Source of the DNA: Phycisphaerae bacterium
GTDB lineage: Bacteria > Planctomycetota > Phycisphaerae > JAAYCJ01
Reading direction: 5' to 3'
Assembly (NCBI GenBank): GCA_012729815.1
Contig: JAAYCJ010000014.1
Location: 1,043-65,042, forward strand
DNA: 64,000 bases
The position numbers and the translations under genes are program-made. Positions within the stretch are counted from its first letter, which is position 1. Every line of letters starts with the position of its first letter. Under the pieces are notes generated by a model that did not search any database, had not been told where the DNA came from, and was given only the letters and a program-made list of their open reading frames with translations. Shown here one piece after another: positions 8,908 to 56,836 of this stretch.

Positions 8908-11232
8908 CTATCGGGCCTGACGGTGTGCTACGCCCGCGAGTTTCTTCTGCAGGCTGTCCAACTGGTCCGCCAGGATACTTCGCTCCTCCGGGGCCAGTTT
9001 TGCTTCGCCGAACCGCATCCGCAGATAGGCCCGCGTCAGGTCCACCATCTCCGGGTGGACGTCGGCCCGGATCAGGCGAAGGTCCTCGGTGAATTCCCAC
9101 GCCGTCCGCGTGACCGGTTTGGTGATCCCTCGCTTGGCCAGCGTCACCAGCGCGCCGCGGTAGAAGTCGATCGGGCAGGTCCAGACGTTGCCGTACTTGC
9201 GCTCCCAGCGTTTGGCCAGGTAACGGCGGAACCGCCGCAACCCCTTGGTCGAGACCAGCACCGAGATCCGCACGATCAGGTAGGCGAACGCGATCAGCAG
9301 CACGACCACGATCCAGTGCAGCACCTGGTGCCAGCGCGACTGGTAGTCCTCGCCCCGCAGCATGTCGATGAACCGCGTGATGACTCGCTTGATCGTCCAG
9401 GTCTGGCCCGCCTCGCCGGTCTCGTCGCCCAGGATCTGCTTGCGCAGGCCCTCGATGAACTCGCGCCGCTCGCTCTCGTCGTAGTTGGCCAGGTGCGAGA
9501 GCCACGTGAACCGCAGCAGGTCCACCGCGTCCCAGAACATCCGCACCAGCTTGCTCTCGACCGGTCGGATCGCCTCGTCCCGCGCCGCCGGCGTCGGGTC
9601 GAAGGTCGTCCAGCCCTTCCCGTCGAGGTACACCTCAGCCCACGCGTGGGCATCGCAATTGCGGATCGTGTAGTAGCCGCCGAACGCGTTGTAGTTGTAG
9701 CCGCCGTTCTTGAACCCGGTCACGATGCGGGCCTCCAGGCCCAGCGACCGGCACAGCAGCACGAACGCCGAGGCGAAGTACTCGCAGTGGCCGTGCTTGC
9801 GCCGCGTCAGGAAGTCGAACACCGGGTCGATCTGCGGCAGGACGTCGCGATTGTCCAGGTCGTACCGGAACTCGCCGCTGGTCCGCAGCCACATCTCCAG
9901 CTTGCGGGCCTGTTCCAGCGGCGAAAGCTCGCGCGCCTCCTTCGCGAGCACCTCCTGGGCCTTCTCCTGATAGCGATCCAGGTCCGCTTCGCCGCCGACC
10001 CGGTGACGCTGATGCGCCCGGAACCGCGCGATCATCGGCAGGGTCTCCCGCCGCACCGTCCGCTCCACGTCGCCGGCGGTGGGGGCCTTCGGCCAGATGT
10101 TCTGCGCCGGCGCCTCGTGCGAGGTCAGCAGCTTGTAGCAGAAGCCCTTCTTGGGATACTGCGAGGCCCGCAGGGTGTTGGTCTGCGGACAGTAGGTCAG
10201 CCGCATCTCCCGGTTTGTGGCGATCGCGGTGGGCGTGTCGATCACAAACAGGTTGGACGAAATCTCATCGTCGTAGTAGATGCGCCAGAAGATCTGCTTG
10301 GCCACCGCCTCCTTCGACAGCATCGCCGCGTCCTGGATCGGCACGGGGGTGTCCAGGCTGCGGGTCTGAACCACCCGCTCCTCGCCTTCCTTTTGCTCCT
10401 CCAGCCACTTCCAGAACTGCCCGTGGCGGGAATACTGCGTCTTGACCGACCCGCGCAGGTACATCAGCGGGGCCACGCCGCTCTTGCTGTCGCTGAGCAC
10501 CTTGACCCGCAGCACCGGGTCGTCATCCTCCATCAGGATGGTCATTTCGCCCAGGGTCAACTGCTCGCCGAAACCCGTCCGTGTGCTCTGGCGAGTCAGC
10601 GTGTTGCCCAGAAGCTGCATCGCCGGCGAGCCGCGCGGGATCAGCACGAAGATGGCCAGCGAGATGCTGCACGTCAGCACCGCCGTCACGAAGTAGCCGC
10701 TGATCCACGTGCGCCGGCGGACCTGCACCGCGATGCCGCGGCCCGCCGCCCCTTCGAACTGGCGGTGCGCCATCGCCTCGACCACCAGGTGGGTCTTGTA
10801 CAGCCAGTAGCCGGCCAGGGCCACGTAGGCCACCAGCACCACCGCGAATTCGGTGGTCGGAGTGACCGCGCCGGCGGCCAGCATCGCCATGACCGAGAGG
10901 ATCATCAGCTCCGAGAAATCGCTGACCTTGCCGATGCTGAAGCTCTTGATCAGGATCGCCGCGGTCAGAAAGTAGGCCAGGGCCTTGCCCGGTTCGAGTC
11001 GCAGCAGCAGGATGGACATCGCCAGCATGCCGATGCCGACCAGCACGATGAAGATCGAGACGAATCGCGGAACCCGGACGGGCCGGCCGATCCGCCGGTA
11101 CGCCACCAGCAGCACGATGCACGAGAAGACCATGATCCCGGTCGAGTGGTCCAGGTAGACCCGCGCCATCTCCCAGGTCGCCAGCGCGACGCTCAGGAAA
11201 CCCAGCGGCAGCAGTTCACGGGGTCTGACCAT
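8908..11232 (-). CDS. Transglutaminase-like membrane protein (TgpA-like: TM region, transglutaminase core, C-terminal TM/DUF4129-like)
   Basis: The Cys-His-Asp core is present (HGHCEYFASAFVLLCRSLGLEARIVTGF ... DAHAWAEVYLDGKGWTTFDPT). I re-called the start to the ATG of MVRPRELL, which sits 2 nt after the DUF58 TAA stop. The ORF track extends 267 codons further upstream with no stop, and that extension is spurious. Confidence 0.8.
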   Translation of the reverse strand: MVRPRELLPLGFLSVALATWEMARVYLDHSTGIMVFSCIVLLVAYRRIGRPVRVPRFVSIFIVLVGIGMLAMSILLLRLEPGKALAYFLTAAILIKSFSIGKVSDFSELMILSVMAMLAAGAVTPTTEFAVVLVAYVALAGYWLYKTHLVVEAMAHRQFEGAAGRGIAVQVRRRTWISGYFVTAVLTCSISLAIFVLIPRGSPAMQLLGNTLTRQSTRTGFGEQLTLGEMTILMEDDDPVLRVKVLSDSKSGVAPLMYLRGSVKTQYSRHGQFWKWLEEQKEGEERVVQTRSLDTPVPIQDAAMLSKEAVAKQIFWRIYYDDEISSNLFVIDTPTAIATNREMRLTYCPQTNTLRASQYPKKGFCYKLLTSHEAPAQNIWPKAPTAGDVERTVRRETLPMIARFRAHQRHRVGGEADLDRYQEKAQEVLAKEARELSPLEQARKLEMWLRTSGEFRYDLDNRDVLPQIDPVFDFLTRRKHGHCEYFASAFVLLCRSLGLEARIVTGFKNGGYNYNAFGGYYTIRNCDAHAWAEVYLDGKGWTTFDPTPAARDEAIRPVESKLVRMFWDAVDLLRFTWLSHLANYDESERREFIEGLRKQILGDETGEAGQTWTIKRVITRFIDMLRGEDYQSRWHQVLHWIVVVLLIAFAYLIVRISVLVSTKGLRRFRRYLAKRWERKYGNVWTCPIDFYRGALVTLAKRGITKPVTRTAWEFTEDLRLIRADVHPEMVDLTRAYLRMRFGEAKLAPEERSILADQLDSLQKKLAGVAHRQAR

Positions 11233-14426: not shown

Positions 14427-14572
14427 CGTGCTTCCGCCGAACCTGCGTTTTTGGTTGCAGCCGCCTGTGAACTGCTTTATAATCCGTCTTACTTCTGTGC
14501 CTCGTGGGGGTCTGCCAAATGAGGTCGTGGGGCGGGCGATGTCCCGTCGCTGTGCTTGCTGAGGAGAGAGCC

Positions 14573-16849
14573 ATGAAACCGTCAATAATGCTGCCGGCTG
14601 CGTTTCTGTCCGTTTTCTGCTGGGCCAATGCCGCCACCGTCAATGTCTGGCTCGAAATCGACGCTTCGGCCAACGAGTACCGCGTGCTGGCCGAGTGCGT
14701 CGACGACGTCGCTGGGACCTGCGCCGGACTGGCCCTCTACAACGTCACGCTGAGCAACGTGGCGGAGTTGTACAACGACGGTCCGATGGCCTATGACGAG
14801 GCGGGCGAGACCACCACGCCGCTGGCCGGTTTCGTTTTGTTCCGCAGCGACAGCGGGGCCGGCGTCACCACGTTGGGCGCCGCCCAGAATACGTTTGATC
14901 CCAACGGAGCCCAGATCGTGTACGACATCGGCGACCAGGCGGTCGATCTGACCGCGCTCGTTTCAGCCGATGTCTACGTGCCCGCCGACGGTCAGGTCGC
15001 CGTGCCCGTTCAACTGGGCCACGGCACGTTCACCGGCGATCCGCCGAGCATCACCAACGCGACCTTCAATGTCTTTGATCCCGCCCGCGACGGCACCACT
15101 CAGCCGCCCGATACCGTCGCGATTCTCGATCCGGACATCGTCGGCGTCGAATACACCCTGACCGTCAGCGTCCAGGGCCAAGGCACGACCACGCCCGCCG
15201 CGGGCGATCATACGTATGACGAAGGCGTCCAAGTGGCGATCTTGGCCGCCGCCGCCGACGGTTGGCACTTCGTTCGCTGGCAGGGCGACGTGTCGGCCAC
15301 CAGCGCCGCCGCCTCGGTGACCATGAACGCCGACAAGGCCGTCACCGCCGTTTTTGAAGAGGATGCCGCCCAGTATGCCCTGACAGTGCAGGTCCAGGGC
15401 CAGGGGACGACCACGCCGGCCGCCGGCCAGCACACGTATGACGATGGGACGGTCGTTCCTCTCTCAGCCGCCGCCGCCGACGGCTGGCATTTCGTCCGTT
15501 GGCAGGGCGACGTCGCCGGAACCAGTCCCTCCTCCTCCATCACGATCAGCAGCAACAAATCGGTGACCGCCGTCTTCGAGCAGGACGCCGCCCAGTACAC
15601 GCTGACCGTCAACGTCCAAGGTCAGGGCGCGACCACGCCCGCCGCCGGTCAGCACACCTATGATGAAGGGGCCGCCGTCCCGCTGACCGCCACGCCCGCC
15701 GGCGGCTGGCACTTCGTCCGGTGGGAAGGCGACGCCTCCGGCGCCCAGGAGTCCACCCAGGTTACCATGGACAGCGCGATGACCGTCACCGCCGTCTTCG
15801 AGCGAGACACCGCCCAATACGCGCTGACCGTCAACGTCCAGGGCCAGGGCACAACGACGCCCGCCGCCGGTCAGCACACCTACGATCAGGGCGCCCAGGT
15901 AAACCTCGGCGCCACGCCCGCACAAGGTTGGCACTTTGTCCGGTGGGAGGGCGACGTGTCCGGCGTCAATCCGAACGTTGGGGTCACCATGGACTCCAGC
16001 AAGTCCGTCACCGCGGTCTTTGAGCAGGACGCGGCCCAGTACACGCTAACCGTCAACGTCCAGGGCGACGGGACCACCGATCCCAATGCCGGTCAGCACA
16101 GCTACGATGCAAACGCCGCGGTCGAGGTTGCCGCTACCGCCGCCGACGGCTGGCATTTCGTCCGCTGGCAGGGCGATGCGACCGGAACCGCGCCAACCCT
16201 GACCGTCACCATGGACCGCGGCAAGAGCGTCACCGCCGTCTTTGAGCAGGACGCCGCCGAATACGTCCTGACCGTCAACGTCCAGGGCAGCGGCTCGACC
16301 AATCCGGTTCCCGGCCAGCACAGCTACGCGGACGGAACCGAGGTAATCGTCGCGGCCACACCCGTCGAGGGCTGGCACTTTGTCCGGTGGGAGGGCGATT
16401 TGACGGGCGCCACCGCCACGGCATCGCTGACGATGGACGCCAGCCAGTCGATCACCGCGGTCTTCGAGCAGGACGCGGCCCAGTACACGCTGACCGTCAA
16501 CGTCCAGGGCCAGGGCACGACGGCGCCCGCTGCCGGCCAGCATGCCTACGACAGCGGAACCGAGGTCGCCCTCTCGGCTGCCCCGGCCGAAGACTGGGAG
16601 TTCATCCGCTGGGAGGGTGACATCTCCGCGACCGACCCGAACACCACCGTGACCATGAACGCGGGCAAGTCGGTCACCGCCGTTTTCCAAGCCGAGGCGG
16701 TTGATCCCAATGATCCCAACCAGCCGTCCGACCCCAACGAAACCAACGGCGACGTTCCTCCCATCGGCGGATGCCTCATGACCGCCATGGTCGTCGGACT
16801 GGCTGTGGCCTTCGGATTCGCCATGCTCGGACTATATCGGGAGTCGTAG
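14573..16849 (+). CDS. Secreted repeat protein with 7 tandem InlB-B-type (Listeria-Bacteroides repeat, TIGR02543-like) domains and a C-terminal TM anchor
   Basis: Start re-called to MKPSIMLPAAFLSVFCWANA (signal peptide), which has a GGAGAG RBS; the listed ORF start at 14504 is upstream. It contains seven ~74-aa repeats of the form YTLTVNVQGQGTTTPAAGQHTYD...GWHFVRWEGD...SVTAVFEQDAAQ. The C-terminus (VPPIGG, hydrophobic helix, YRES) may be a degenerate PEP-CTERM-like anchor. Confidence 0.75.
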   Translation: MKPSIMLPAAFLSVFCWANAATVNVWLEIDASANEYRVLAECVDDVAGTCAGLALYNVTLSNVAELYNDGPMAYDEAGETTTPLAGFVLFRSDSGAGVTTLGAAQNTFDPNGAQIVYDIGDQAVDLTALVSADVYVPADGQVAVPVQLGHGTFTGDPPSITNATFNVFDPARDGTTQPPDTVAILDPDIVGVEYTLTVSVQGQGTTTPAAGDHTYDEGVQVAILAAAADGWHFVRWQGDVSATSAAASVTMNADKAVTAVFEEDAAQYALTVQVQGQGTTTPAAGQHTYDDGTVVPLSAAAADGWHFVRWQGDVAGTSPSSSITISSNKSVTAVFEQDAAQYTLTVNVQGQGATTPAAGQHTYDEGAAVPLTATPAGGWHFVRWEGDASGAQESTQVTMDSAMTVTAVFERDTAQYALTVNVQGQGTTTPAAGQHTYDQGAQVNLGATPAQGWHFVRWEGDVSGVNPNVGVTMDSSKSVTAVFEQDAAQYTLTVNVQGDGTTDPNAGQHSYDANAAVEVAATAADGWHFVRWQGDATGTAPTLTVTMDRGKSVTAVFEQDAAEYVLTVNVQGSGSTNPVPGQHSYADGTEVIVAATPVEGWHFVRWEGDLTGATATASLTMDASQSITAVFEQDAAQYTLTVNVQGQGTTAPAAGQHAYDSGTEVALSAAPAEDWEFIRWEGDISATDPNTTVTMNAGKSVTAVFQAEAVDPNDPNQPSDPNETNGDVPPIGGCLMTAMVVGLAVAFGFAMLGLYRES
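15152..16695 (+). repeat. Intragenic tandem DNA repeat, 7 copies of ~222 bp at high identity
   Basis: Near-identical nucleotide blocks recur in frame (for example gccgtcttcgagcaggacgccgcccagtacacgctgaccgtcaacgtccagggccagggc). These encode the InlB-B repeats; it is not a CRISPR array. Confidence 0.8.
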
Positions 16850-16874
16850 TCCTTCCAATGGACCAGTAACTTCT

Positions 16875-16910
16875 GACCCGGTCGCCAGTTCGCGGCCGGG
16901 TCTTTCTATG
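16875..16910 (+). terminator. Putative intrinsic terminator downstream of the repeat-protein gene
   Basis: A GC-rich hairpin GACCCGG...CCGGGTC is followed by TTTCT. Confidence 0.35.
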
Positions 16911-16971
16911 GCGGCGGCCAATACTGAATATTATAATCAAGCATTATGATTGATAGGTGGTGGCCTGATCA

Positions 16972-17000
16972 TTGATCTGGGCTCGGCAATCGCATATACT
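16972..17000 (+). promoter_or_regulatory. Putative sigma70-like promoter (TTGATC, 17-nt spacer, TATACT) for the 17045 gene
   Basis: The hexamers sit in the AT-richer intergenic region about 45 nt upstream of the ATG, which has a GGAGAA RBS. Confidence 0.35.
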
Positions 17001-17044
17001 GCAATGACCGACAAGCCCTTTGGAGACCAAGGAGAAACCCGAGT

Positions 17045-18970
17045 ATGCGGCGATTCCCTTCGGCGGCGATCTGCCTGATTACTGTGTCCGCGGCGGCGTT
17101 CCTGGGGGCCTGCAACGGTCCCGTCAACAACCTGGCCAAGAATCAGGAGTATCTCCTGACGGTCAGCGTCGAGGGCCATGGCACGGTCAGCCCGGACACC
17201 CTCACCTACAACGCCGGGACTTCCGTGGTCCTCGTGGCGGAGCCCGCCGCCGGCTGGCACTTCGTCCGATGGGAAGGCTCCGGTCAGGGCACCGGCGATA
17301 CGCTGCAACTGGTCATGGACCGCGATCGCGCGGTCACCGCGGTTTTTGAGGAGGGTGTGCTTCAATACACCTTGACCGTGGAAGTCGAGGGCCAGGGCAG
17401 CGTTAACCCTTCATCCGGCGCGCATGGGTACGATCCGAATTCCATCGTTAACCTCACCGCCACCGCCGCCGACGGCTGGCGCTTCGTCGAGTGGCAGGGC
17501 TTCGCCGGCGGGACCGACCCTGCGACCACCGTTACCATGACCGGCAACAAGACGGTCAAAGCCGTCTTCGAGGAGGATACGTCGCAGACGCTGACCATCG
17601 CGGTTCAGGGCCAGGGTACGGTCGATCCGGCGGTCGGTCAGCACGAGTATGAGAGGGACACGCAGGTGAGCGTGAAGGCCGCCGCCGCCGACGGCTGGCA
17701 CTTCGTTCGATGGGAAGGGGACGCCGCCGGCAACACACCCAGCGCGACCGTCTCCATGGACGCCGACAAGACGGTCACCGCCGTCTTTGAAGAGGACAGC
17801 GACGCATACAACCTGACCATCGCCGTCAGCGGCCAGGGGACCACCGATCCCGCCGCCGGGACTCACAGCTATCCTGCCGACGGATCGGTCAGCCTGACCG
17901 CCGCCGCCGCCGCCGGCTGGCATTTCGTCCGCTGGCAGGGCGACGCCCAGGGCACCTCGCCGACGGTCGAATTGACGATGGGTTCGGCCAAGACGGTCAC
18001 CGCGATCTTCGAGGAGGACGCGGCCGAATATACCCTCACCGTCTCGGCCATCGGCCAGGGCACCGTGGATCCGGCCGTCGGAGGCTACAGCTACGCCGAC
18101 GGCCAGCAGGTCACGCTGACCGCCACGGCGGGCGAGAGCTGGCGGTTCGACCGCTGGCAGGGCGACGTGACCGGGACGGACAACCCCGTCACGGTGACCA
18201 TGTCCGCCACCCGCAGCGTGACCGCCGTCTTCGTCCGCCAGTATCGCCTGAGCGTGGCCGCGACCGGCCAGGGAACCACCAGCCCGGCCGTTGGCGATCA
18301 TTTCTACGACGTCGGCCAGACCGTGACCGTCTCAGCCACGCCCGCCAACGGCTGGCGATTCCTCGATTGGACCGGCGACCTGTCCTCGTCCAACCAGAGC
18401 GCCGATCTGGTCATGGACGACGACAAGGCCATCACCGCCTCCTTCGGCGGCGCGGGCGTCCAGGTCATGATCGAAACCTCCAAAGGCAATATTCTCGTCG
18501 AACTGGACGATGAGCTGGCGCCGGTCACCGTCGAAAACTTCCTCAGTTACGTCGATGAGGGGTTCTACGACGGGACCGACGGCAAAGAGGCCACCATCTT
18601 CCACCGCGTGATTCCCGATTTCATGGTTCAGTGCGGCGGCTTCACCGAAGAGCTGGAAGAGAAGGAGACGCACGACCCGATCGTCCTCGAGTCGGACAAC
18701 GGCTTGAGGAACGTGCGGGGCACGATCGCGATGGCCCGCACCACCGAACCCGACAGCGCCACCTCGCAGTTTTTCATCAACGTGGTGGACAACGATTTCC
18801 TCAACTACGCGAGCGAAGCGAAGCCCGGCTACGCCGTTTTCGGCCGCGTGCTGGAGGGCATGGACGTCGCCGACGAGATCGTCGCCGTCGAGACCGCCTC
18901 CGTCGGTCCGCACGACGACGTGCCGGTGGAGGCCATCTTCATTACCTCCGTGTATCGCGTTGAGGAATGA
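17045..18970 (+). CDS. Lipoprotein with six InlB-B-type repeats fused to a C-terminal cyclophilin-type peptidyl-prolyl isomerase domain
   Basis: The signal peptide carries a lipobox (FLGAC). Six GWHFVRWEGD-type repeats follow. The C-terminal 170 aa (VMIETSKGNILVELDDELAPVTVENF...[15 protein letters not shown]...ARTTEPDSATSQFFINV) is a clear cyclophilin. Confidence 0.8.
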   Translation: MRRFPSAAICLITVSAAAFLGACNGPVNNLAKNQEYLLTVSVEGHGTVSPDTLTYNAGTSVVLVAEPAAGWHFVRWEGSGQGTGDTLQLVMDRDRAVTAVFEEGVLQYTLTVEVEGQGSVNPSSGAHGYDPNSIVNLTATAADGWRFVEWQGFAGGTDPATTVTMTGNKTVKAVFEEDTSQTLTIAVQGQGTVDPAVGQHEYERDTQVSVKAAAADGWHFVRWEGDAAGNTPSATVSMDADKTVTAVFEEDSDAYNLTIAVSGQGTTDPAAGTHSYPADGSVSLTAAAAAGWHFVRWQGDAQGTSPTVELTMGSAKTVTAIFEEDAAEYTLTVSAIGQGTVDPAVGGYSYADGQQVTLTATAGESWRFDRWQGDVTGTDNPVTVTMSATRSVTAVFVRQYRLSVAATGQGTTSPAVGDHFYDVGQTVTVSATPANGWRFLDWTGDLSSSNQSADLVMDDDKAITASFGGAGVQVMIETSKGNILVELDDELAPVTVENFLSYVDEGFYDGTDGKEATIFHRVIPDFMVQCGGFTEELEEKETHDPIVLESDNGLRNVRGTIAMARTTEPDSATSQFFINVVDNDFLNYASEAKPGYAVFGRVLEGMDVADEIVAVETASVGPHDDVPVEAIFITSVYRVEE

Positions 18971-26501: not shown

Positions 26502-26639
26502 CGCGAAAATCCTTCACTCAAAGCCTTCGGTGTTAGCGGAGAGTCTACCGATCCGCCTCCGCCCACGCAATGGTAGGGCGGGAGGTTCTCGCCGAAGGCG
26601 AGGTTCACCCGCCATCCGAAAACCAACGACGAAATAAAT

Positions 26640-26692
26640 AACGTAGCTCCGCCGCCCCCGGCGGAGTCTTCCTTCATTCTGACTTCTGACCA
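26640..26692 (-). terminator. Hairpin-repeat element acting as an intrinsic terminator downstream of rnpB (copy 1 of a repeat family)
   Basis: On the minus strand: hairpin GACUCCGCCGGGGGCGGCGGAGC followed by UACGUUAUUUAUUUCG. Related copies lie at 32368 and 33541. Confidence 0.5.
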
Positions 26693-26745
26693 CTGAATTC
26701 TGAGTTCTTTTCCCCATCCCCCCTCCCTCACCCGCCGCGCGCAAA

Positions 26746-27140
26746 AAAAGAGAGCGTTCCATAAGCCGAATTCTGTCTCCCGATCGCTCGGGAGGGCGGC
26801 CATTTATCTGGGCCCGCCGTTGCCGACAGGCTCGTGCGGCCTACCCGGGACTCGAACGAGACGGGCCGCCTCGTCCGGACGCTTCCGCGCCCGGTCGTCC
26901 CCTATTTGGCCTTGCCGGCGGTGGGGTTTGCCGTGCCCCCGACGTCGCCGCCGGGGCGGTGAGCTCTTACCTCGCCTTTTCACCCTTACCCGTCCACGCC
27001 GAAGCGCCGACGGGCGGTATCTTTTCTGTGGCACTTTCCCTGGGGTCACCCCCGGTGGACGTTATCCACCACCGCGCCCGGTCCGGTTCGGACTTTCCTC
27101 CCAGCCAACGGCTGAGCGGCCGCCTGGAACACTCTCTCTA
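26746..27140 (-). ncRNA. rnpB: RNase P RNA (bacterial type A)
   Basis: The reverse complement carries the conserved blocks GGGAGGAAAGUCCG (P4 5' strand), GGGAAAGUGCCACAGAAA, GGGUAAGGGUGAAAAGGCGAGGUAAGAGCUCACC, GGCAAGGCCAAAUAGGGGA, GUCCCGGGUAGGCCGCACGAGCC and ACAGAAUUCGGCUUAUGGAACGCUCUCU, with P1/P2/P4 pairings consistent with E. coli M1 RNA. The ORFs overlapping this locus are spurious. Confidence 0.9.
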
Positions 27141-27476: not shown

Positions 27477-30400
27477 ATGACGTCGTCGAAACGAAGGAAA
27501 CCGGACCACAACAAGCCTGATGGCGACCAATCGCCGGCACCGACGCCAGAGCACGATCAGGCCCACGATCAGGCCCAGCAAGAGGCCGCCGACAAGGGCC
27601 GGTCCGAGGCTCCAGACCAGGCGCAAGACTCGGAACGCCAACAGGTTGAGGGCGAAGACGTCCAGCCGACCGACGAATGGCTCAGCCAGGGCCGCCAGGA
27701 TCAATCCAAAAGCCAGGAGACTTCCCAGCCCCCCGAGCAGGCTGACCAAGAGGCCCAACCCCGTCCGGCCCTGTTCGTGGCCGGAGTCGGGGCCTCAGCC
27801 GGAGGGGTCCGGGCCATCGAGGAGTTCTTCTCCGAAATGCCGCAGGGCTCGAAGATCGCCTTCGTCATCCTCCAGCATATGGCGCCGGGCCACCGCAGCG
27901 TCCTGGACGCCCTGATCCGCCGAAAGACCGAAATCACCGTTGAAGAGGCCCAGGAAAAAGCCCGTCTCCAGGCCGATCACGTCTACGTCGTCCAGTCCGG
28001 CAGGGACGTGGACTTCCGCGACGGCTGTTTCCACTTCGAAGCCTCCGGCGAGGAACGCGGCAGCCGCATGCCCATCGACCACCTCTTCCGATCGCTCGCC
28101 GCTGAGTTCGGCGACCGCGCCATCGCCGTCATCCTCTCCGGAGCGGGAAGCGACGGGACGCTGGGCCTCAAGGAGATCAAGGGCGAAGGCGGCGTGGTCA
28201 TGGTCCAGGATCCTGACGAGGCTGAATACGCCAGCATGCCCAGCAGCGCCGTAGCCACCGCGCTGGCCGACATGGTCCTGCCCGTCCGCCGGATGGCCGA
28301 GGAATTGCTCCGCTACGTGGACCACCCAGCCGCCGGCGCCACGCCGGCCGCCGAACGCGAGACCAACGAGCGGAAGTTCGAAAAGAACGTCCAGCGGATC
28401 ATCCAGATCGTCCGGGCCAAGACCGGACACAACTTTGTCCACTACAAACAGAACACCATCCGTCGGCGGATCCAGCGGCGGATCGCCGTCCACCAACTTC
28501 CCGATATCGAGGAGTACGTCAAATTCCTCCGCCAGAACCCCGACGAGGTCCAGGCCCTCTTCCGCGACCTGTTGATCAACGTGACCAGCTTCTTCCGCGA
28601 TCCGGAGGCCTGGGTTGCCCTCCAGGAGGACGTGGTCACGCCCATCGTGCGAGACCGTGACCCGGAAGAACCCATCCGCGTCTGGGTTCCCGGCTGCGCC
28701 ACCGGTGAGGAGGCCTACTCCGTGGCCATCCTCTTCGCCGAGGCCATGGACCGCCTCGAACGCCAGATCCCGATCAAAATCTTCGCCACCGACATCAGCC
28801 CCGAGGGCATCGACGCCGCCCGCGACGGCTGCTACCCGCCCAACATCGCCGCCGACCTGACGCCCGCGCGCCTCAAGGAGTATTTCGTCAAGAAGGAAGA
28901 GCAGTACCGCGTGGTCAACCGAATCCGCGAAATGGTCGTCTTCGCCGTCCACGACCTGACCCGCGACCCGCCGTTCTCCCAACTCGACCTGATCACCTGC
29001 CGTAACCTCCTGATCTACATGGACCAGGACCTCCAGAAAACCATCCTCCCCGTCTTCCACTACAGCCTGGCCCGAGGCGGGTGCCTGTTTCTGGGCACTT
29101 CCGAGGGCGTCGGCGATTTCCTCCAAATGTACGCCCCGGTCGACAAGAGGTGGAAGATCTACCGGGTCGAACCGGTCTCCAGCGAGCGGCACATCGAGGA
29201 ATTCCGCCAGGCCATCCTCGGCCTCGAGCCGCCAAGACTCCGACGCGTGATCGCCATGGCGGACCGCGAGAAACCGCGGGAAAAAGAAACCCGATCCGGT
29301 GATCGCGAGGATCGGCCCGCTCCGCCCGCGCCCGTCGACGCCCGCGAGGTCCTGCGGCGGACCATGATGGACCGCTACGCCCCGCCCGCCGTCCTGCTCG
29401 ACCACGACTTTAACGTCCTCTACTTCCACGGCGAGACCGACAAGTTCCTCCGCCCTCCCCAGGGCGAGCCGGCGTTCAACCTCCTCGCCATGGCCCGCGA
29501 TAGCCTGCTCTACCGCCTCACCGTCGCCCTCCGCGAGGCCCGCAGCGAAGGCAAGCCCGTCCGCTGCGAACAAATCCCGGTCCGTCGCACCGACGGGCGG
29601 TTCTTCAACGCCGACCTGACCATCAGCCCCCTCGAACGCCAGCGCGGCGGCCCGCGGCTCCTTTTGGTCACCTTCGAGGAGCACCCCGGACCTGATGACG
29701 AGGAGGCCCGACAGGCCGACCGCGACCGCGAATCCGACGCCCGTCACCAAGACCTCCAGGACCAGCTCAACTCCACCCGCCAGGACCTCCAGGCCACCAT
29801 CGAGGAACTCGAAACCTCCAACGAGGAACTCAAGAGCGCCAACGAGGAGCTTCAAGCCAACAACGAAGAGCTCCAGAGCGCCAACGAGGAACTCGAGGCC
29901 TCCCGCGAGGAACTCCAGAGCGCCAACGAGGAACTCGAGACGGTCAATACCGAACTCCACCGCCGCAACGAAGCCCTCACCGAGGCCCACGACGACATCA
30001 ACAACTTCTTCGGGGCCACCGACATCGCCACCCTCATCCTCGACACCAGGCTCCGCATCAAGCGATTCACCCCGGCGACCAAGCGGATCTTCAACCTGAT
30101 CGACGCCGACCACGGACGGGTCATCACCGATCTCACCTCGCAGCTCATTGACGTGGACCTGCTGGACCAGGCCCGCGACGTGATCGACACCCTCGACAAA
30201 AAGGAACTCGAGGTCCGGACCCGCGACGGCGGCTGCTACCAGTTGCGAATCCTGCCCTACCGCACCGCCGACAACGTCATCGAGGGCGTCGTCCTGACCT
30301 TCCAGAACATCAGCGAGGTCAAGCGAGTCCAGGAGCGGGCCCGCGACGCCCAGCGTTACGCCGAAAGCGTCATCGCCACCGTCCGCGAGCCTCTGGTCGT

Positions 30401-30739: not shown

Positions 30740-30865
30740 GAAGGCAAAATGCAACATGCAGAAGGCAAAATGCAGAATGAAGAGGCCTGACGACACACCG
30801 GCGGCCCCCATCGCCGGGCACGCCACCTCTTCTCATTTTGCACTTTGCATTTTGCCTTCTGCATT
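30740..30865. other. Imperfect ~120-nt palindrome between the CheB/R fusion gene and the kinase gene
   Basis: gaaggcaaaatgc...(loop)...gcattttgccttc is a perfect 13-bp pair. An outer gaagagg/cctcttc pair flanks it, and ggcaaaatgca direct repeats occur inside. No U-tract follows. Confidence 0.3.
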
Positions 30866-30909
30866 CTCCATTGGCATTTCCTCCTGGCTTCTTCTTCGGA
30901 GCCTTGTCC

Positions 30910-32235
30910 ATGACCGATAACGCCGACCACAACGAGCACAAAACCGACCTCCGTCGGCAGGCCGAGCGGGAACTGGCCGCTCGCGGCGACCGCGTGCCCA
31001 CCGAAACCGAGGAAATCGAACGGGCCCTCCATGAACTGCGGGTCCACCAGATTGAACTGGAAATGCAGAACGAGGAGCTCCGCCGCGCTCACATCGATCT
31101 GGAGACTTCTCAGCGGCGATACTGGGAGCTCTTCGACCTGGCCCCGGTGGCCTACTTCACCCTCCGGCCGAACAACCTGATCGTCGACGCCAACCAGGCC
31201 GCCGCCCGACTCCTCGGCCACGAACGCGCCTTCCTCCGCAGTCGTCCGTTCAGCAACTTCGTCGGGCCCAACGAGATCGAGAGTTTCTACGGCTTCCGCA
31301 ACCGCCTGCTCAAGACCCATCGCCCGTGTTCGTGCGAGCTGACCATGCGTCAGGCCGAGAACGGCAGATTTCTCATCGCCCGCCTCGACGGCCTGGCTCT
31401 GCGCGATGACCAGGATAACATCACCGAACTCCGGCTGGCCGCCACCGACGTCACCGAGCAACGCCAGGCGGAACGAGCCTTACAGGCGGCCCACGACGAT
31501 CTGGAACGCCGCGTCCACCAGCGGACCGCCGAACTGGCCCGGACGGTCGAGGAACTGCGACGTTCCAACGCCGACCTCCAGCAGTTCGCCTACGTGGCCA
31601 GCCACGACCTCCAGGAACCCCTCCGCATGGTCACCAGCTTCGTCCAGCTCCTCAAGATCCGCTGCGGCGATAAACTGCCCGGCGAGTGCTACCACTACAT
31701 CGACGTGGCGGTCGAAGGAGCCCTGCGGATGCAGGCCCTCGTCAAGGACCTGCTCGACTACTCGCGGCTTACCACTCGCGCCCAGGAGCCCCAGCCGATC
31801 GAAGCCGCGGACGTGGTCGCCGCTGTGCTCGAAAATCTGCGTATGACCATCGACGAAACGCACGCCCGCGTCGACGTCGGCGAGCTTCCAGCCGTCCTGG
31901 CCGACCCCACCCATCTCCTCCAGGTTTTTCAGAACCTGATCGAAAACGCCCTCAAGTTCCGCTCTGAAGCCCCGCCGCACATCCGCATCGCCGCCCGCCG
32001 CGCCGACGGCTGGTGGCAATTCGACGTCGCCGACAACGGCATCGGCATGGATCCGCAATACTTCGACAAGATATTTGTCATCTTCCAGCGCCTCCACAAC
32101 CGCCAGAAATACCCCGGCACCGGAATCGGCCTGGCCCTCTGCAAGAAGATCATCGAACGCCACGGCGGAAAAATCTGGGTCGACTCCCAGCCCGGCCAGG
32201 GCACCACCGTCCACTTCACCCTCCCCGCCGCCTGA
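30910..32235 (+). CDS. Sensor histidine kinase (coiled-coil, PAS, HisKA, HATPase_c)
   Basis: H-box VASHDLQEPLRMV. N/G boxes FDVADNGIGMD...GTGIGLALCKKIIERHGGKIWV. Start re-called to MTDNADH; the listed TTG ORF start at 30838 lies inside the palindrome. Confidence 0.8.
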   Translation: MTDNADHNEHKTDLRRQAERELAARGDRVPTETEEIERALHELRVHQIELEMQNEELRRAHIDLETSQRRYWELFDLAPVAYFTLRPNNLIVDANQAAARLLGHERAFLRSRPFSNFVGPNEIESFYGFRNRLLKTHRPCSCELTMRQAENGRFLIARLDGLALRDDQDNITELRLAATDVTEQRQAERALQAAHDDLERRVHQRTAELARTVEELRRSNADLQQFAYVASHDLQEPLRMVTSFVQLLKIRCGDKLPGECYHYIDVAVEGALRMQALVKDLLDYSRLTTRAQEPQPIEAADVVAAVLENLRMTIDETHARVDVGELPAVLADPTHLLQVFQNLIENALKFRSEAPPHIRIAARRADGWWQFDVADNGIGMDPQYFDKIFVIFQRLHNRQKYPGTGIGLALCKKIIERHGGKIWVDSQPGQGTTVHFTLPAA

Positions 32236-32367
32236 CGACCCGCACCCGCCAAAGAGAAACCTCCGCCGTCGATTCCACTTCCCTTTAAGACGGCCCGGAT
32301 CACGCGGAACACGCGGAGGGGATAAAGAAGAAATGAAAATTGAAAATATCAAATACCAAAAATCAAA

Positions 32368-32455
32368 ATGTGGCTCCGCCGCCCTCGGCGGAGTCTTCTC
32401 CTCATTCTGACTTCTGGCTTCTTTCCCTCCGCGCGTTCCGCGTGCTCCGTGCTGA
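32368..32455. repeat. ~90-bp hairpin-repeat element, copy 2 (acts as a minus-strand terminator after the radical SAM pseudogene)
   Basis: tgtggctccgccgccctcggcggagtcttctcctcattctgacttctggcttctttccctccgcgcgttccgcgtgctccg. On the minus strand the hairpin is followed by a long U-rich tract ACAUUUUGAUUUUUGGUAUUUGAUAUUUUC. Confidence 0.6.
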
Positions 32456-32469
32456 TCTTCATGGGTCTT

Positions 32470-33464
32470 CCTCGGTACACGCGAATACCCCCGGCACGCC
32501 GACCCCACGTCCGTGTCCCCATGCACCAGCCGTCTGCCGGCGCGAAATTCCTCGCCGTTAAACGCGTCGAGAAAGCTCTGCCGTTTCAGGTCGCCCCACG
32601 CGAACCGCTGCTCGCCGACCACGCAGCAGGGCAGCAGCGTACCGTCGAAATGGATGACCGGAAAGTCGTACAGGTCCGTGCAGTAGGGCGGCTGCTTCTC
32701 ATCCACCTGGCAGGAGCCCTTGAGGCCATGCTCGTTGTAGACCTGCCCGTCCAGCGCCCCTTCGCCAAGGGCCAGATCGTCCACCTCCAGTTCCGCAGCC
32801 AGCCTGCGGGCCGCTGGTATCTCGTGCAGGTGTGCGGAAAGCACAAAAACCGCCAGACGATCCGCGGCGTCTGGCGACCCAGCGCCCGGCGGACCTCGAC
32901 CATCCGCCGCAGGTTCGCCAACGCCCGCTCGCACGACCCGCCGCGTCAGTACGTCGCGTAGGTCTCCTGCGTCGCCCCGTCAATCGAGCCGACAAGGAAA
33001 TCCAGACCCGACTCCACCAGCCGCTCGGCCAGACCGTCCGGCAGGTGGTTCAAATTGCTGTGAATCTGCGTGCCCACCCCGCGCCCGTGGATCGACGCGA
33101 TGATCTCCGGCAATTCCCGATTCAACAGCGGCTCTCCCCAGTTGAACAGGTTCACCTGCACCAGATGCGGCCAGAGCTCATCGAGAAATCGCTCCGCGTC
33201 CGCCCGCTGCAAAAACCCTCGGGCCAGCGGCTCGGTCCGCGCCCGGCCGGTGCAGCACCGAAGGTTACAGATATTGCCCGGCTCCAGGACGATCCGCCAC
33301 GGATACGCCTCGACCGTCTGGGCTCCGCCCGTCGCCGCCGCGTGCAGCTTCCGCGCATTGGTCAGCTTCGCCTCGCTGCCGTACCGCCGCCAAAGCTCCC
33401 GGCCCACCGTCGAGAGCCGCCGAACGTCGAAGCCCGTTTCCGTCGCCTGCGTCGGCGCCATCAT
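32470..33464 (-). pseudogene. Radical SAM / SPASM-domain enzyme, inactivated
   Basis: The N-terminal ORF 32946..33464 carries the radical SAM core (EPGNICNLRCC, NWGEPLL, VGSIDGATQETYATY) and ends at a TGA. The same frame then continues with conserved sequence RGGSCERALANLRRMVEVRRALGRQTPRIVWRFL. A +1/-1 frame change near 32690 is needed to reach HEIPAARRLAAELEVDDL...C..C...PCC (SPASM-like). No proper stop codon is found; the 3' end runs into repeat copy 2. Confidence 0.65.
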
Positions 33465-33540
33465 CTTGTCTCATCGCGATTCGCGCACAAGGTCTCCACC
33501 ATCTTCATCGGCTCACCTCGCCCCTCCAGTCCACTCAACT

Positions 33541-33630
33541 TGTGGCTCCGCCGCCCCCGGCGGAGTCTTCCTTCTTCATTCTGGCTACTGACTTCTGCCT
33601 TCTCCCCTCCGCGTGCTCCGCGTGATCCGC
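33541..33630. repeat. ~90-bp hairpin-repeat element, copy 3
   Basis: tgtggctccgccgcccccggcggagtcttccttcttcattctggctactgacttctgccttctcccctccgcgtgctccgcgtgatccg. It sits in the divergent intergenic region upstream of the radical SAM pseudogene. Confidence 0.6.
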
Positions 33631-33739
33631 GCCGTGCCTTCTGTTTTGAAGATCCCACCGCGACTTGCTTTTGTGACTCGCCTCATCCGTCGCTCCTCGC
33701 TATCATCAGCCGACAATCCGCCGACCGGACAAAGGAGAG

Positions 33740-36700
33740 TTGCCCATGTCGCTTGACCGCCTGCCCGCCCTCGACCCCGCCATCGACCTGCGCGAGGCCC
33801 TGATCGTCGAAAACGGCCTGACGTCCGATGCCCTGGCCAAACTGACCGACGTGGTCCGCCGAGTCACCGGAGGTGCGCCGGCCACCACCCCGCTGACGCC
33901 CGACCGGATCGCCGAGACGCTGACGACCCGCCACCTGATCGTCCCGGGCTGCCTGAACACCTCGCCAATCGTCGAACACTTCTATTTCCGCGAGCAGGCA
34001 TTCCACGACCGCCTCCATCCCGGTCCAGGCGGCTTGGTGATCCGCACCCTCGTCGCACCCACCGCCGCCCGCAACGTCCTGTTCCTCGGCGCCTCCGACC
34101 CCGCAGGCCAGGTCGCCGCCATCGAACGGCTTGCCCAACTGATCGACCGACACGGCCCGGTTCTGCCCGCTTTGCACGAGACGCAGCGGACCACCGTCCG
34201 GCCCGACCGCGACCCGGACCAGTACCCTCTGGCCTGGCTCTTCGAACCGCTCGACGGCGACCGCCACCGTTTCACCGTCAACCGATTCTCCCAGGCCGCC
34301 CTCCGCTATCTCTACACCGCCGACCAGGACGACGGCCAACGCCTCATCGAAATCGCCCAGGAGATGAGCCGCCGTGACGAGCCCACCGACCTGCGCCTCG
34401 GCACCATCCGCCAGTCCGACCATTACTTCTCGCACCGCATGGTCGTCTACTGGCAACTCGTCGAACCGCTGCCGCTCTTTGCCGAACCGCTTCGCCAAGC
34501 CGTCGTCGAGGCCCTCTTCGACCACCACCACTCCTCGGAATCCGCCGCCTCACTCGACCGCTTCCGCCAACAGATCGGCCTGCCGCCCGACCGCCACGTC
34601 ATGCTCACCGCCCTCAACGCCTGGGTCGAAGCCGAATACTTCAGCCGACGCCTCCCGGACCGCGGCGACTGGCGCACCGTGATCGACGTGGTGACCCGCT
34701 ACTTCGAATCGATCTGGCAAATGAGCAAGGGCGGTTCGGGCCTCATCGAAGGCTACGCCAGCTACCTGACCGTGGCCCTCGAAGCCGCCCTCCTGATGGG
34801 CCGACCCGACGTCATCCGCCAACCGCCGCTGCGGACCTGGTGCCAGCGTCTTTTCGGCGTCATCGGCAACATGGGCGTCATGATGCCGTCCCAACAGACC
34901 GATCCACATCGATGGGCCTCCGACGCCCTTAAGATCGCCGCCTACTTCTTCGACGACGGCCGCTTCGAGTACCTCTGTCGCACCCGCGTTCGCGCCGCTC
35001 GCCTCGGCGTCATCACCGACTCCGACTGGCCGCCGTCGCGGCTCTTTCCCGGACCCGATCCGGTCCTGCCCGCCGAGTATCGCGACCTGAAGGTCATGCC
35101 CCTCGACGAAGTCTTCCGCAAACACTACGCTCCTCACGCCGACCCGGACCGCGCGTTCGACATGATCGTCGGACGCGGCGGCTTCAACTTCGACGACGAA
35201 TACTTCATCGTCCAGAGCGTCCGCAGCGGCTTTAAGTACACGCCCAACGTCGGCGCCCTGACCGGCTATCAGCGGCACGGCTACCAGCTCCTGGCTGACC
35301 TGAGCAACGGCATCTGCCCGGTCCACGGCCAGATCCGCAACGTCAACACCCTCGGCGTCATTCGCGACGGCGCCGGCTGTCCCGTGCCCACCGCCGCCGA
35401 GATCGTCGACGACCGGACCCTCGACGGCGACCGCCAGATCACCCTCCGACTGCCCGACTACAACGGAACCGACTGGTACCGAACCCTCCACTGGCGACGC
35501 GGCCAGTTCCTCCTCGTCCGAGACCTGCTCCACGCCAAACAAGCCGGCCAATTCCGCGTTACCAACTACTGGAACCTCACCGGCGCGCCCGTCGCCGCCG
35601 GCTTTGCCGCCATCTTCCGTCACAACGGCTTCAACCGCGACACCGTCTTCTTCCACGCCCAATGCGCCGGTCATGACCGCGCTGTGCCACAATTCCTCCA
35701 GCCGATTGAGCCAAAAGGACTCTGGCCCTCCGGCGCCATGTCTTCCCTCAGCCCGCTCGGCCTGCCCGAAGGCGAAGCCCGCCCGTGCTGTCTCGAACTG
35801 GACTCCCTGGTGTCCCTGGCCGAAGGACAGATGTGGTCCGCCTGCACGCTGTTCCACGCGACCGTCGAAAACGCCGTCCCGCAGTACCGTCTGCAAAGCG
35901 CATCGCCCGATGAAGCCCGCGTCAACGGCGAAACCATCCGCTTCGCCGCCACGCCCCCGAACCAAGGTCCGGGCACGACGTTCGCCGCCGCCGCTGAGCA
36001 TGGATCGTCGTACCGCCCGCACGTCGCCCAGACCTATCCGGTCGCCCAGCCGCCCGACCTGCTCGCCTGGTCCAGCCCGATCCTCGCCACCGCCACACGC
36101 GACACCATCCGCGTATTCGCTGATGATCGCGATCAGCCGTCCGATATCCATCTGGACTCCAACGTCACCGCCCTCGCCGTCTGCGACCGGTCCGTCGCGA
36201 TCGCCGCCGCCGACGGAACCATCGCTCTCTTCGATGCCGACGGACGGCGGCAGTGGCAGCGGCACTTGACCATCCTCGATCAGATCAAACCCTACTCATG
36301 GTGGGTCTGGCAGACGCCGCTGGCCACCTCGCTGCACCTCGGACCCGTCGGCCCCGACGGCGAGACGCTCCTCGTCGCCGGCTCAGCCTCCTGTGCCATC
36401 GAGGCATGGGACTTGCGCGGCGAACTGCGCTGGCGACAGCACTTCGGCTGGGGATCGGTCGCCCTGATCCAACCCGCGCCGGACCATCCCAGAGCCGCCC
36501 GAGGCCTGCTCGTCGGCCTGAGAGGCTTGTCTTGTCGCGGCGACGCCGACCTGATCGACAGCTCCGGCAAGACCGTCGCGACTTTCCAAAAAGCCCATCC
36601 CGATGAAACCGTCCGCGCCGGAGCCGAAGGATGGGACATCACCGACGCCGTCTTCGCCGAACCGTTCGAATTGGAAGGGCGGCGGTGCCTGCTCGTTGGC

Positions 36701-37075
36701 CGAAGCGGAGCCTTCTGCCACGCCACCGCCTACGACTATGCCGACCAGACCCCGCTCTGGACGACCGACTTTGGCCGCTACATCACCGGCTGCGCCATCC
36801 ATCAGCCGTCGCAACAGATCGCCGTCGGCACCGAACAGGGCCTGCTGGCCGCTTGCGACTGCGCCGGTCGGCGAACCTGGTTCCACTGGCTGCCCGCGCC
36901 GGTTACCGCCGTCGCCGCCGACCGCGATGGCTGGCTCGTCGGCTGCGACCGGCAGGTGATCCACGTCGATGCCCAAGGCCGGTGCTCTGCCCCGCTCGAA
37001 AAACAACTCCTCCTGGCGGCCGGGAACGCAGCCTTCGTGCAAACCCCTCGCGGTCTCGAGCGATGGGAGTTCTGA
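33740..37075 (+). CDS. Large hypothetical protein (1111 aa) with C-terminal PQQ-like beta-propeller repeats
   Basis: Composition is natural; the antisense ORFs are GC artefacts. C-terminal repeats (AVCDRSVAIAAADGTIALFDADGRRQWQ; AIEAWDLRGELRWRQHFG; LWTTDFGRYITGCAI) resemble PQQ/BamB blades. The N-terminal ~700 aa are unassigned. Confidence 0.6.
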   Translation: MPMSLDRLPALDPAIDLREALIVENGLTSDALAKLTDVVRRVTGGAPATTPLTPDRIAETLTTRHLIVPGCLNTSPIVEHFYFREQAFHDRLHPGPGGLVIRTLVAPTAARNVLFLGASDPAGQVAAIERLAQLIDRHGPVLPALHETQRTTVRPDRDPDQYPLAWLFEPLDGDRHRFTVNRFSQAALRYLYTADQDDGQRLIEIAQEMSRRDEPTDLRLGTIRQSDHYFSHRMVVYWQLVEPLPLFAEPLRQAVVEALFDHHHSSESAASLDRFRQQIGLPPDRHVMLTALNAWVEAEYFSRRLPDRGDWRTVIDVVTRYFESIWQMSKGGSGLIEGYASYLTVALEAALLMGRPDVIRQPPLRTWCQRLFGVIGNMGVMMPSQQTDPHRWASDALKIAAYFFDDGRFEYLCRTRVRAARLGVITDSDWPPSRLFPGPDPVLPAEYRDLKVMPLDEVFRKHYAPHADPDRAFDMIVGRGGFNFDDEYFIVQSVRSGFKYTPNVGALTGYQRHGYQLLADLSNGICPVHGQIRNVNTLGVIRDGAGCPVPTAAEIVDDRTLDGDRQITLRLPDYNGTDWYRTLHWRRGQFLLVRDLLHAKQAGQFRVTNYWNLTGAPVAAGFAAIFRHNGFNRDTVFFHAQCAGHDRAVPQFLQPIEPKGLWPSGAMSSLSPLGLPEGEARPCCLELDSLVSLAEGQMWSACTLFHATVENAVPQYRLQSASPDEARVNGETIRFAATPPNQGPGTTFAAAAEHGSSYRPHVAQTYPVAQPPDLLAWSSPILATATRDTIRVFADDRDQPSDIHLDSNVTALAVCDRSVAIAAADGTIALFDADGRRQWQRHLTILDQIKPYSWWVWQTPLATSLHLGPVGPDGETLLVAGSASCAIEAWDLRGELRWRQHFGWGSVALIQPAPDHPRAARGLLVGLRGLSCRGDADLIDSSGKTVATFQKAHPDETVRAGAEGWDITDAVFAEPFELEGRRCLLVGRSGAFCHATAYDYADQTPLWTTDFGRYITGCAIHQPSQQIAVGTEQGLLAACDCAGRRTWFHWLPAPVTAVAADRDGWLVGCDRQVIHVDAQGRCSAPLEKQLLLAAGNAAFVQTPRGLERWEF

Positions 37076-56059: not shown

Positions 56060-56836
56060 ATGAACAACATGCGCCGATGCCGGTTCAGACTCTCTGATGC
56101 CTTTACCCTCATCGAACTGCTGGTCGTGGTGGCCATCATCGCCGTACTGGTGGCGATCCTGCTGCCGGCGATGACCGCCGCCCGCGAAGCGGCGCGAAAA
56201 GCCGCCTGCGGTGCCAACCTGCACCAGATGGGAATCGGAGCGGCCCTCTACGCCGCCGACAACGGCGGTTGGGTGCCCAGCGGCTTCGTGGGCTCGAGCA
56301 TCGGATTCACCGTGATTCCCGAATACCCCTGGTTCGTCTCCGTTCCCAAGGGGCCGCCTGCCCCCCTGATCTACCGGCTCTGGAAGGACGGCAGGTTCCC
56401 GCCGCGAATCTTCTACTGCCCGACCGCCACGGCGGCCGGGGCGGTGACGACGTACACTCCCGAAAACTTCGAATGGCGGCTCAGCGGCCATCCCGACAGC
56501 CCCGGATGGACGCTCACCTCCTACGCCGAACGCGTGGAAACCTGCCTCGACGCCGCCGGCAACACCGTCTTCGATCCGGGTCGTGCTCGGGTCGACTTCT
56601 TCAAAGCCGAGTACCTGGCCGACAAGGCCATGATCGCGGATGTCTACTGCGACAACTACGCCTTCAGCGCCCACCCGCGGGCAAGAGAACTGGAGCGGAC
56701 CGGCGGGTGGAACGTCTGCTTCGGCGACGGCAGCGTCAGGTTCAGGCAACTCGACGAGTACCTGTCCGACCCGAGCATCGGTGTCTGGTGGTCGCACTAC
56801 ACCTTCTGGCGCCACTGGGATGTGGTGGGAGAATAG
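56060..56836 (+). CDS. DUF1559 protein with a prepilin-type N-terminal cleavage/methylation domain
   Basis: N-terminus [25 protein letters not shown]; C-terminal motif [18 protein letters not shown]; starts 4 nt after the LacI stop. Confidence 0.85.

Follow-up and report, generated by a model that had tools for sequence, protein, structure and literature searches.

A radical SAM/SPASM pseudogene between two elements of a dispersed REP family in an uncultured Phycisphaerae bacterium

Identity and lesions of the radical SAM/SPASM gene

The 64-kb stretch of DNA analysed here (the window) carries on its minus strand a radical SAM/SPASM pseudogene that starts with the ATG at 33464 and extends to about 32459, the conserved protein match stopping near 32470. 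The gene is bracketed by two copies of a repeat, and a third copy lies elsewhere in the window. The minus-strand frame that opens at the ATG consists of 172 codons, ends with ...GATQETYATY and is closed by a TGA at 32948–32946, after which the same frame resumes with RGGSCERALANLRRMVEVRRALGRQTPRIVWRFLCFPHT (also given as RGGSCERALANLRRMVEV...). Domains were scored on a conceptually repaired translation only and not on the raw frame; this translation matches the Pfam families Radical_SAM (PF04055) with 37.3 bits (cut-off 29.5) and SPASM (PF13186) with 30.5 bits (cut-off 21.5). None of the named NCBIfam subfamilies was reached by the repaired translation. The top match, TIGR04317, scored 65.7 bits, far under its cut-off of 380, and thus no named subfamily applies.

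Intact relatives of 329–350 amino acids, with 50–63% identity to the pseudogene, come from Phycisphaerae and Planctomycetota MAGs. In place of the canonical C-x3-C-x2-C cluster motif the pseudogene has CNLRCC (C-x3-C-C). As this variant is also found in the intact proteins P0002, P0003 and P0011, it is a trait of the clade and not a lesion. There is no paralogue of the gene within the window, the protein search returned no homologue between about 99% and 63% identity, and a homologue search with protein alignment across genomes gave only three distant homologues, none of them syntenic. When a syntenic outgroup was sought through the neighbouring 1109-residue protein, a single relative was obtained, which has 45% identity; on its 4.6-kb contig the gene upstream is an unrelated one.

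In an alignment of the repaired pseudogene sequence with ten intact homologues (alignment A2), the in-frame TGA (32946–32948, minus strand, codon 173) is a nonsense allele of the Arg codon CGA at a polymorphic site. Arg173 is invariant in A2, and the Y-R-x-GG motif around it recurs in more distant family members. The second lesion is a 1-bp deletion at 32829–32830 (minus strand), which lies upstream of the SPASM region and leaves CC instead of CCC on the coding strand. With P0002, P0003, P0004 and P0006 as queries, tblastn showed a single frame switch, located between ...CFPHT and LHEI... and with a 1-base overlap; the coding strand reads CAC-ACC-TGC where the relatives encode H-T/N-L-H. One frame switch with a 1-base overlap indicates a single 1-bp deletion, the plus strand having GG at 32829–32830 where GGG is expected. 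Further downstream, a TAT (Tyr) codon at 32485–32487 (minus strand) replaces the last Cys of the SPASM C-x-x-C. This residue, C327, is kept in all ten intact homologues of A2 and the window sequence alone deviates. Two other near-invariant residues of the alignment are altered as well (W273F and A159G). Finally, the SPASM-carrying frame reads ...CRGYSRVPRKTHE and then enters the repeat; its first stop is at 31480, so that it runs through the whole downstream repeat. The pseudogene thus lacks a continuous ORF that encodes all of the SPASM cysteines.

The locus is a non-functional remnant of the gene for an uncharacterised radical SAM/SPASM enzyme of an uncultured Phycisphaerae bacterium from anaerobic bioreactors. 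The original prediction had described a decayed gene of this type, with an in-frame TGA, at least one frameshift before the SPASM region and a 3' end that enters the repeat without a proper stop. This description is borne out and extended by the Tyr codon at the last Cys; the frameshift is where it was placed, and the count is exactly one, as judged by tblastn with four intact homologues.

Selenoproteins occur among radical SAM enzymes, TrsS being one such family. The gene might accordingly be read as functional through recoding, with the TGA specifying selenocysteine and the frameshift bypassed by programmed ribosomal frameshifting. All that speaks for this is the TGA in frame between conserved blocks together with the existence of such selenoproteins, of which TrsS itself gives a weak match far under its cut-off. 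The TGA aligns with an invariant Arg and not with Cys or Sec, and near-identical sister strains have CGA. Folding of the 67 nt from the TGA onwards gave a dG of −28.3 kcal/mol against a mean of −29.3 kcal/mol for shuffled sequences (z +0.38); directly 3' of the TGA there is accordingly no SECIS-like stem-loop by this comparison, and Rfam has no match there. Read from the sequence, CAC-ACC-TGC is not an X-XXY-YYZ slippery heptamer, and both the last SPASM Cys and an in-frame stop are missing. The invariant Arg at the TGA position and the lack of a SECIS-like fold exclude selenocysteine, which the original prediction had already regarded as a misreading and for which it had proposed the SECIS check. 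Both selenocysteine and recoding are effectively refuted and excluded for practical purposes, their probability being negligible.

Distribution of the lesions among assemblies

The window's 172-residue product is NLX03673.1 (GXY33_00875, from a 'Phycisphaerae bacterium' MAG), a protein found on at least 23 contigs that stem from numerous JGI, ENA and NCBI assemblies. With CGA in place of TGA, the gene yields a 292-residue product, P0001, which still enters the frameshifted tail and whose contigs are syntenic with the window. Of the two alleles, TGA was counted on at least 23 contigs and CGA on at least five. At position 32948 the window has A, and loci L001–L004, L042 and L044 from other assemblies have G (CGA). 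Over 20,879 bp the window differs from L001 at two positions only, both within the pseudogene: 32948 (A versus G, which turns CGA into TGA) and 32964 (C versus A, Asp to Glu).

These two differences, the only ones in 20.9 kb, sit 16 nt apart and could resemble a local error, as expected if the lesions were sequencing or assembly errors of one assembly. At least 23 contigs, drawn from numerous JGI, ENA and NCBI assemblies, have the same A/C haplotype, and the frameshift is present in every fetched locus of another assembly that covers it. Since the lesions recur in independent assemblies they are not assembly errors, and we give the artefact explanation next to no weight. A check for assembly error, in which the return of an intact ORF would speak against decay, had been set beforehand; with the frameshift in every covering locus and TGA as a common allele, no intact ORF was restored.

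The 1-bp deletion and both flanking repeats were found in every fetched other-assembly locus that covers them (24 loci, some of which come from one contig, e.g., L029 and L047). Alignment of these loci over as much as 11 kb showed no indels, and this together with the shared deletion indicates that the deletion is fixed in the sampled population. SNPs present in more than one sample are confined to 32806, 32948 and 32964, all inside the pseudogene. Differences private to single loci are those at 32434 (in the downstream repeat copy), 35702 and 37878, together with a cluster at the end of one contig.

The nonsense codon is still segregating and is presumably the younger lesion, and the pattern is as expected under relaxed selection. 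From this distribution we infer an order of events. The 1-bp deletion, now fixed in the sampled population, would have come first and cut off the SPASM domain. The gene would then have drifted, with loss of the universally conserved Cys and of any usable stop, and CGA at Arg173 would last have changed to TGA in part of the population. Gene decay can be followed clearly here at the level of a population, with one inactivating lesion fixed and a second still segregating.

The flanking repeats, their family and its RAYT

The three repeat copies of the window share a 30-nt core at 32369–32398 (copy 1), 33541–33570 (copy 2) and 26642–26671 (copy 3), all on one strand, where zero matches are expected by chance. 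The core contains an 8-bp GC-rich stem, CTCCGCCG/CGGCGGAG, with a 4-nt loop, a combination with three occurrences in the window where chance would give 0.28. Copy 1 is a REP-bearing composite element (32285–32460, minus strand) with the head GTGG at 32370–32373 and the palindrome at 32374–32393. It forms a near-perfect 176-nt hairpin with the REP core at its apex, for which we calculated a dG of −97.5 kcal/mol (z −11.2) on the minus strand and −85.9 kcal/mol on the plus strand. Copy 1 lies between a convergent kinase gene and the pseudogene, whose open frame enters it. Copy 2 is a REP-bearing half element (33535–33635, minus strand; head GTGG at 33542–33545, palindrome at 33546–33565) in the divergent intergenic region 5' of the pseudogene, with a conserved tail that is pyrimidine-rich on the plus strand. 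Copy 3, a REP-bearing element at 26636–26735 (minus strand; head GTAG at 26643–26646, palindrome at 26647–26666), lies directly 3' of the RNase P RNA gene. With regard to MITEs, which are defined by terminal inverted repeats and a target-site duplication, copy 1 has long inverted arms, copies 2 and 3 are without one arm, and there is no recognisable target-site duplication at the ends of copy 1. In the whole window Rfam returned RNase P RNA only at gathering thresholds; at permissive thresholds the repeat region gave weak matches to generic long-hairpin miRNA precursor models only, and the repeats are therefore no known RNA family.

The gene had been predicted to be flanked by two direct copies of a ~90-bp hairpin repeat. 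The same-strand core is indeed present at both sites, but it occurs a third time at 26642–26671, and the ~90-bp hairpin did not hold for either copy: 32368–32455 is the right half of the 176-nt hairpin, and 33541–33635 has no partner arm and no significant long hairpin (z −1.4). The search for the repeat beyond the locus, which had been proposed along with the prediction, showed that it is not specific to the gene. An exact 26-mer scan of metagenome contigs gave 23 loci, which reduce to 20 distinct, apparently intergenic sites including the window. In 18 of the 20 sites the palindrome CTCCGCCG-N4-CGGCGGAG is preceded by GTAG (nine sites) or GTGG (nine sites), and a GT[A/G]G tetranucleotide head is a recognised REP signature (PMC3733652). 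By crude GC3-based gene calls no site lies within a credible gene (0/20), the one overlap being with an over-extended ORF call. A scan for the exact core in one genome per GTDB species found no match; the species or its REP variant is absent from this one-per-species set. Several metagenome assemblies break at these REP elements.

Two of the loci, L026 and L027, contain three REP cores within 900 bp. At L026, positions 10513–11016 of the minus strand encode a 167-residue protein that matches NCBIfam NF047646 (REP-associated tyrosine transposase) with 84.6 bits (cut-off 80), and 'REP element-mobilizing transposase RayT' is a widespread annotation among its relatives. The H-V-H and Y-I-x-x-N-P motifs can be read from its sequence. 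The RAYT gene lies between inverted cores at 10439–10464 (plus) and 11151–11176 (minus), which is the classical REPtron arrangement. The window itself contains no RAYT gene. The protein is NLX07373.1 (GXY33_19715), and the GXY33 prefix is common to the truncated radical SAM product NLX03673.1; MAG binning, as reflected in this shared locus-tag prefix, and the identical REP sequence, rather than a closed genome, place the RAYT in the window's genome. By analogy with studied REP systems, the RAYT would disperse these REPs among intergenic regions in the form of single-stranded DNA. For neither copy 1 nor copy 2 was an empty site detected.

In many copies the core is part of a longer module, which on the minus strand is ordered as follows: tandem nonamers (GCACGGA-GCACGCGGA-ACACGCGGA-GGG), a purine-rich run of heptamers, GAAGAC, the palindrome, and a CYAC end that is the complement of the head. 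The nonamers have the consensus RCACGCGGA and the heptamers, which vary in number, YCAGWAG. At four sites (L009, L012, L025 and copy 1 of the window) a complementary 3' arm is present, giving hairpins of about 170–255 nt, and the remaining tailed sites are half elements like copy 2. The minus-strand type folds more stably at all 20 sites, a comparison in which base composition is a confounding factor. In the four full hairpins G-U pairs are somewhat more frequent on that strand, an asymmetry that is only mild and likewise confounded by base composition. The better folding of one strand at every site and its additional G-U pairs would fit a strand-specific action of the module. It is conceivable, if unlikely, that the ~100-nt module, made up of REP core, heptamer arm and nonamer arm and often closed into a 170–255-nt hairpin with one REP at the apex, is an undescribed RAYT-dependent, non-autonomous element that differs from REPIN doublets and acts strand-specifically as single-stranded DNA or RNA, and that two directly oriented modules might allow the radical SAM segment between them to be excised or mobilised.

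We also considered a role of the repeats as simple terminators and rejected it. Their orientation is mixed, the gene on the 5' side being co-directional at 10 of the 17 sites with a call, and copy 2 sits in a divergent promoter region.

The bracketing of the gene and comparison with known systems

The pseudogene lies between two REP elements of a dispersed family that has its own RAYT, and this bracketing is probably due to chance. The two flanking REPs would have come to occupy adjacent intergenic regions independently of the gene's history. With roughly 40 intergenic regions in the window, it is not improbable that two of the three copies fall in adjacent ones, the chance being roughly 0.15 by a rough estimate. 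Each of copies 1 and 2 has a tail closer to those at other loci (L018, L009, L025, L006 and L008) than to that of its partner, and each copy ranks only sixth among the other's matches. The flanking copies are therefore neither a local duplication nor a matched pair of ends.

The original prediction had seen here a gene on its way to being deleted or a small cassette delimited by the repeats. On such a reading the segment would either have been inserted as a unit, with IS200/IS605-like ends and the RAYT acting in trans, or be about to be lost by recombination between the repeats. The organism does have a RAYT, and both copies lie on the same strand with about 95 nt of similarity, but the longest unbroken identity within these is only about 16 nt, a poor substrate for homologous recombination. 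A shared history would explain why the left arm of copy 1 (32290–32332) and the outer arm of copy 2 (33593–33635) show 88% complementarity. Homologues elsewhere sit in unrelated neighbourhoods, as a mobile cassette would predict; the four loci with intact homologues (L005 and L039–L041) have no neighbouring genes in common with the window. At L005, the only one of these whose flanks were read, no REPs surround the intact homologue. No deletion allele of the pseudogene was seen among the matches listed: of the best 10 of 23 contigs, eight contain the neighbouring kinase gene in identical form and reach beyond it, and all eight keep the pseudogene. An IS200/IS605-like unit is recognised by its presence at more than one locus or by an empty site. 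Neither was found, the window holds no second copy of the gene, the protein search was empty between about 99% and 63% identity, and the next nearest protein, 63% identical, lies in another context. With the repeats belonging to a REP family that is dispersed and has its own RAYT, this part of the original prediction is not upheld, and we regard a cassette or a pending deletion as quite improbable.

Copy 1 might alternatively have inactivated the gene, by inserting at its extreme 3' end and displacing the stop codon, with the other lesions arising later. The conserved arm (GCACGGAG...) begins 10–11 codons after the C-x-x-C, where a stop is expected, given that the ten aligned intact homologues end 9–22 residues after this motif (and the more distant P0011 after 6), and the open frame continues through copy 1. 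At other sites, for instance L006 and L018, the same arm starts a few nt after the stop codon of the upstream gene. The nearest stop to the pseudogene's end, the out-of-frame TGA at 32461–32459, is located 10 nt before the arm, which is the spacing between stop codon and arm at L018. This matching distance suggests that the original stop lies right next to copy 1 and was shifted out of frame by a small indel after ...RVP, which argues against disruption by the insertion. TGA 32461–32459 may thus have been the stop of the gene, displaced by a further small indel. We consider inactivation by the REP very unlikely; owing to the start of the arm at the expected stop and to the complementarity of the arms, respectively, this explanation and the cassette or deletion are kept as minor rivals of a chance bracketing. 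The locus is to be annotated as a pseudogene and neither as a selenoprotein nor as a recoded gene, with the hairpins marked as REP elements.

Among characterised radical SAM proteins, the tungsten cofactor oxidoreductase radical SAM maturases (TIGR04317) have the same Radical_SAM and SPASM architecture, and the intact relatives of the pseudogene resemble such radical SAM/SPASM maturases in their length of ~330 amino acids. They differ in that the closest clade of the pseudogene has C-x3-C-C and not C-x3-C-x2-C, and the window copy is a pseudogene.

To our knowledge, REP biology has been studied almost entirely in Proteobacteria. The family described here resembles the REPtrons of E. coli, Pseudomonas, Stenotrophomonas (SMAG repeats) and Rhodopirellula baltica (PMC3733652, PMC3116915) in its short GC-rich palindrome, headed at one end by GT[A/G]G, in its numerous extragenic copies, and in a RAYT (NF047646) flanked by the same palindromes in inverted orientation. 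GTAG REPs and RAYTs have already been reported in the PVC superphylum, including Planctomycetes and R. baltica itself (PMC3733652). In contrast to those REPtrons, the copies here are mostly singlets and not inverted doublets, many have a ~70-nt conserved tail of short tandem oligomers, some are located at the apex of 170–255-nt hairpins, and the host is an uncultured Phycisphaerae bacterium. REPINs consist of two inverted REP cores that form the arms of a hairpin (Bertels and Rainey 2011, PMC3116915). Like REPINs (PMC3116915), the long elements described here are hairpin-forming, non-autonomous, REP-containing units tied to a RAYT. They contain, however, a single core in the loop end with arms unrelated to it, which is not the REPIN layout, and the doublets that do occur (L024 and L026) are in direct orientation. 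For an uncultured Phycisphaerae lineage of anaerobic bioreactors, our analysis records a REP/RAYT system whose tailed long-hairpin architecture is unusual among such systems.

Alleles and cluster motif of the radical SAM pseudogene

The decayed radical SAM gene carries variable sites at window positions 32806, 32948 and 32964. All four possible combinations of the alleles at 32806 (G/C) and 32948 (A/G) are found among the assemblies, represented by the window and by the corresponding loci L029, L001 and L044, which implies recombination, recurrent mutation, or a chimeric consensus in the metagenome assemblies. The change at 32806 is synonymous when read in the ancestral frame.

The gene encodes the motif CNLRCC (33270-33255, minus strand), and its closest clade, which comprises the window gene and the intact homologs P0002, P0003 and P0011, has C-x3-C-C in place of the canonical C-x3-C-x2-C. 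The homolog P0018 has C-x3-C-x-C, and the canonical motif is kept in more distant members of the family. As a cluster-binding motif C-x3-C-C is unusual, and it occurs in genes that are apparently intact.

Protein genes of the window

Divergent from the pseudogene lies a gene for a 1109-aa protein (33746-37075, plus strand), for which a search of 5.8 billion proteins returned only the protein itself and one relative with 45% identity; its sole domain match is a sub-threshold PQQ_2 beta-propeller. Two adjacent plus-strand genes (14504-16849 and 17045-18970) contain 222-bp tandem repeats (15142-18240) that code for "divergent InlB B-repeat" (Flg_new_2) domains, six to seven per protein, and the second protein also has a cyclophilin-type peptidyl-prolyl isomerase domain at its C-terminal end. 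Within the gene for a 1079-aa CheB-CheR-PAS fusion protein, a 21-nt periodic repeat (29743-29973, plus strand) codes for a heptad-like EELxxxN coiled-coil segment. The plus strand also harbors paralogous genes at 51831, 56097 and 58695 that combine a prepilin-type N-terminal methylation motif with DUF1559, a pairing typical of Planctomycetota genomes; among these paralogs the Pfam scan covered the gene at 56060-56836 only.

REP elements and a second type of hairpin

Contigs of several independent metagenome and MAG assemblies end within or beside REP copy 1 (32285-32460), with ends at window positions 32421, 32343 and 32233 in loci L003, L036, L049 and L050. In GCA_036800125.1 the locus is split between two contigs that break at this copy. 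The third REP copy of the window (26636-26735) lies directly 3' of a full-length bacterial class A RNase P RNA gene (26747-27135, minus strand, 284.6 bits).

Beside the RAYT gene of L026, a REP-core unit of ~139 bp is directly duplicated in tandem (10230-10510), with cores at 10300 and 10439. The arms around the core in L010/L019 and L013 are unlike those of other family members, one side consisting of tandem CTCCGCCGCCAATG(C/T)A units and the other of telomere-like CCCCAA/CCCTAA/CCCCGA repeats.

A long intergenic hairpin (30740-30880; z = -4.35) is flanked by a CheB/CheR fusion gene and a histidine kinase gene; its apical stem is rich in GC, and tandem GCAAAATGCA-like units form its arms. It resembles the REP modules in that the arms of both are built from short tandem oligomers, but it differs from them in sequence and lacks the GT[A/G]G core.
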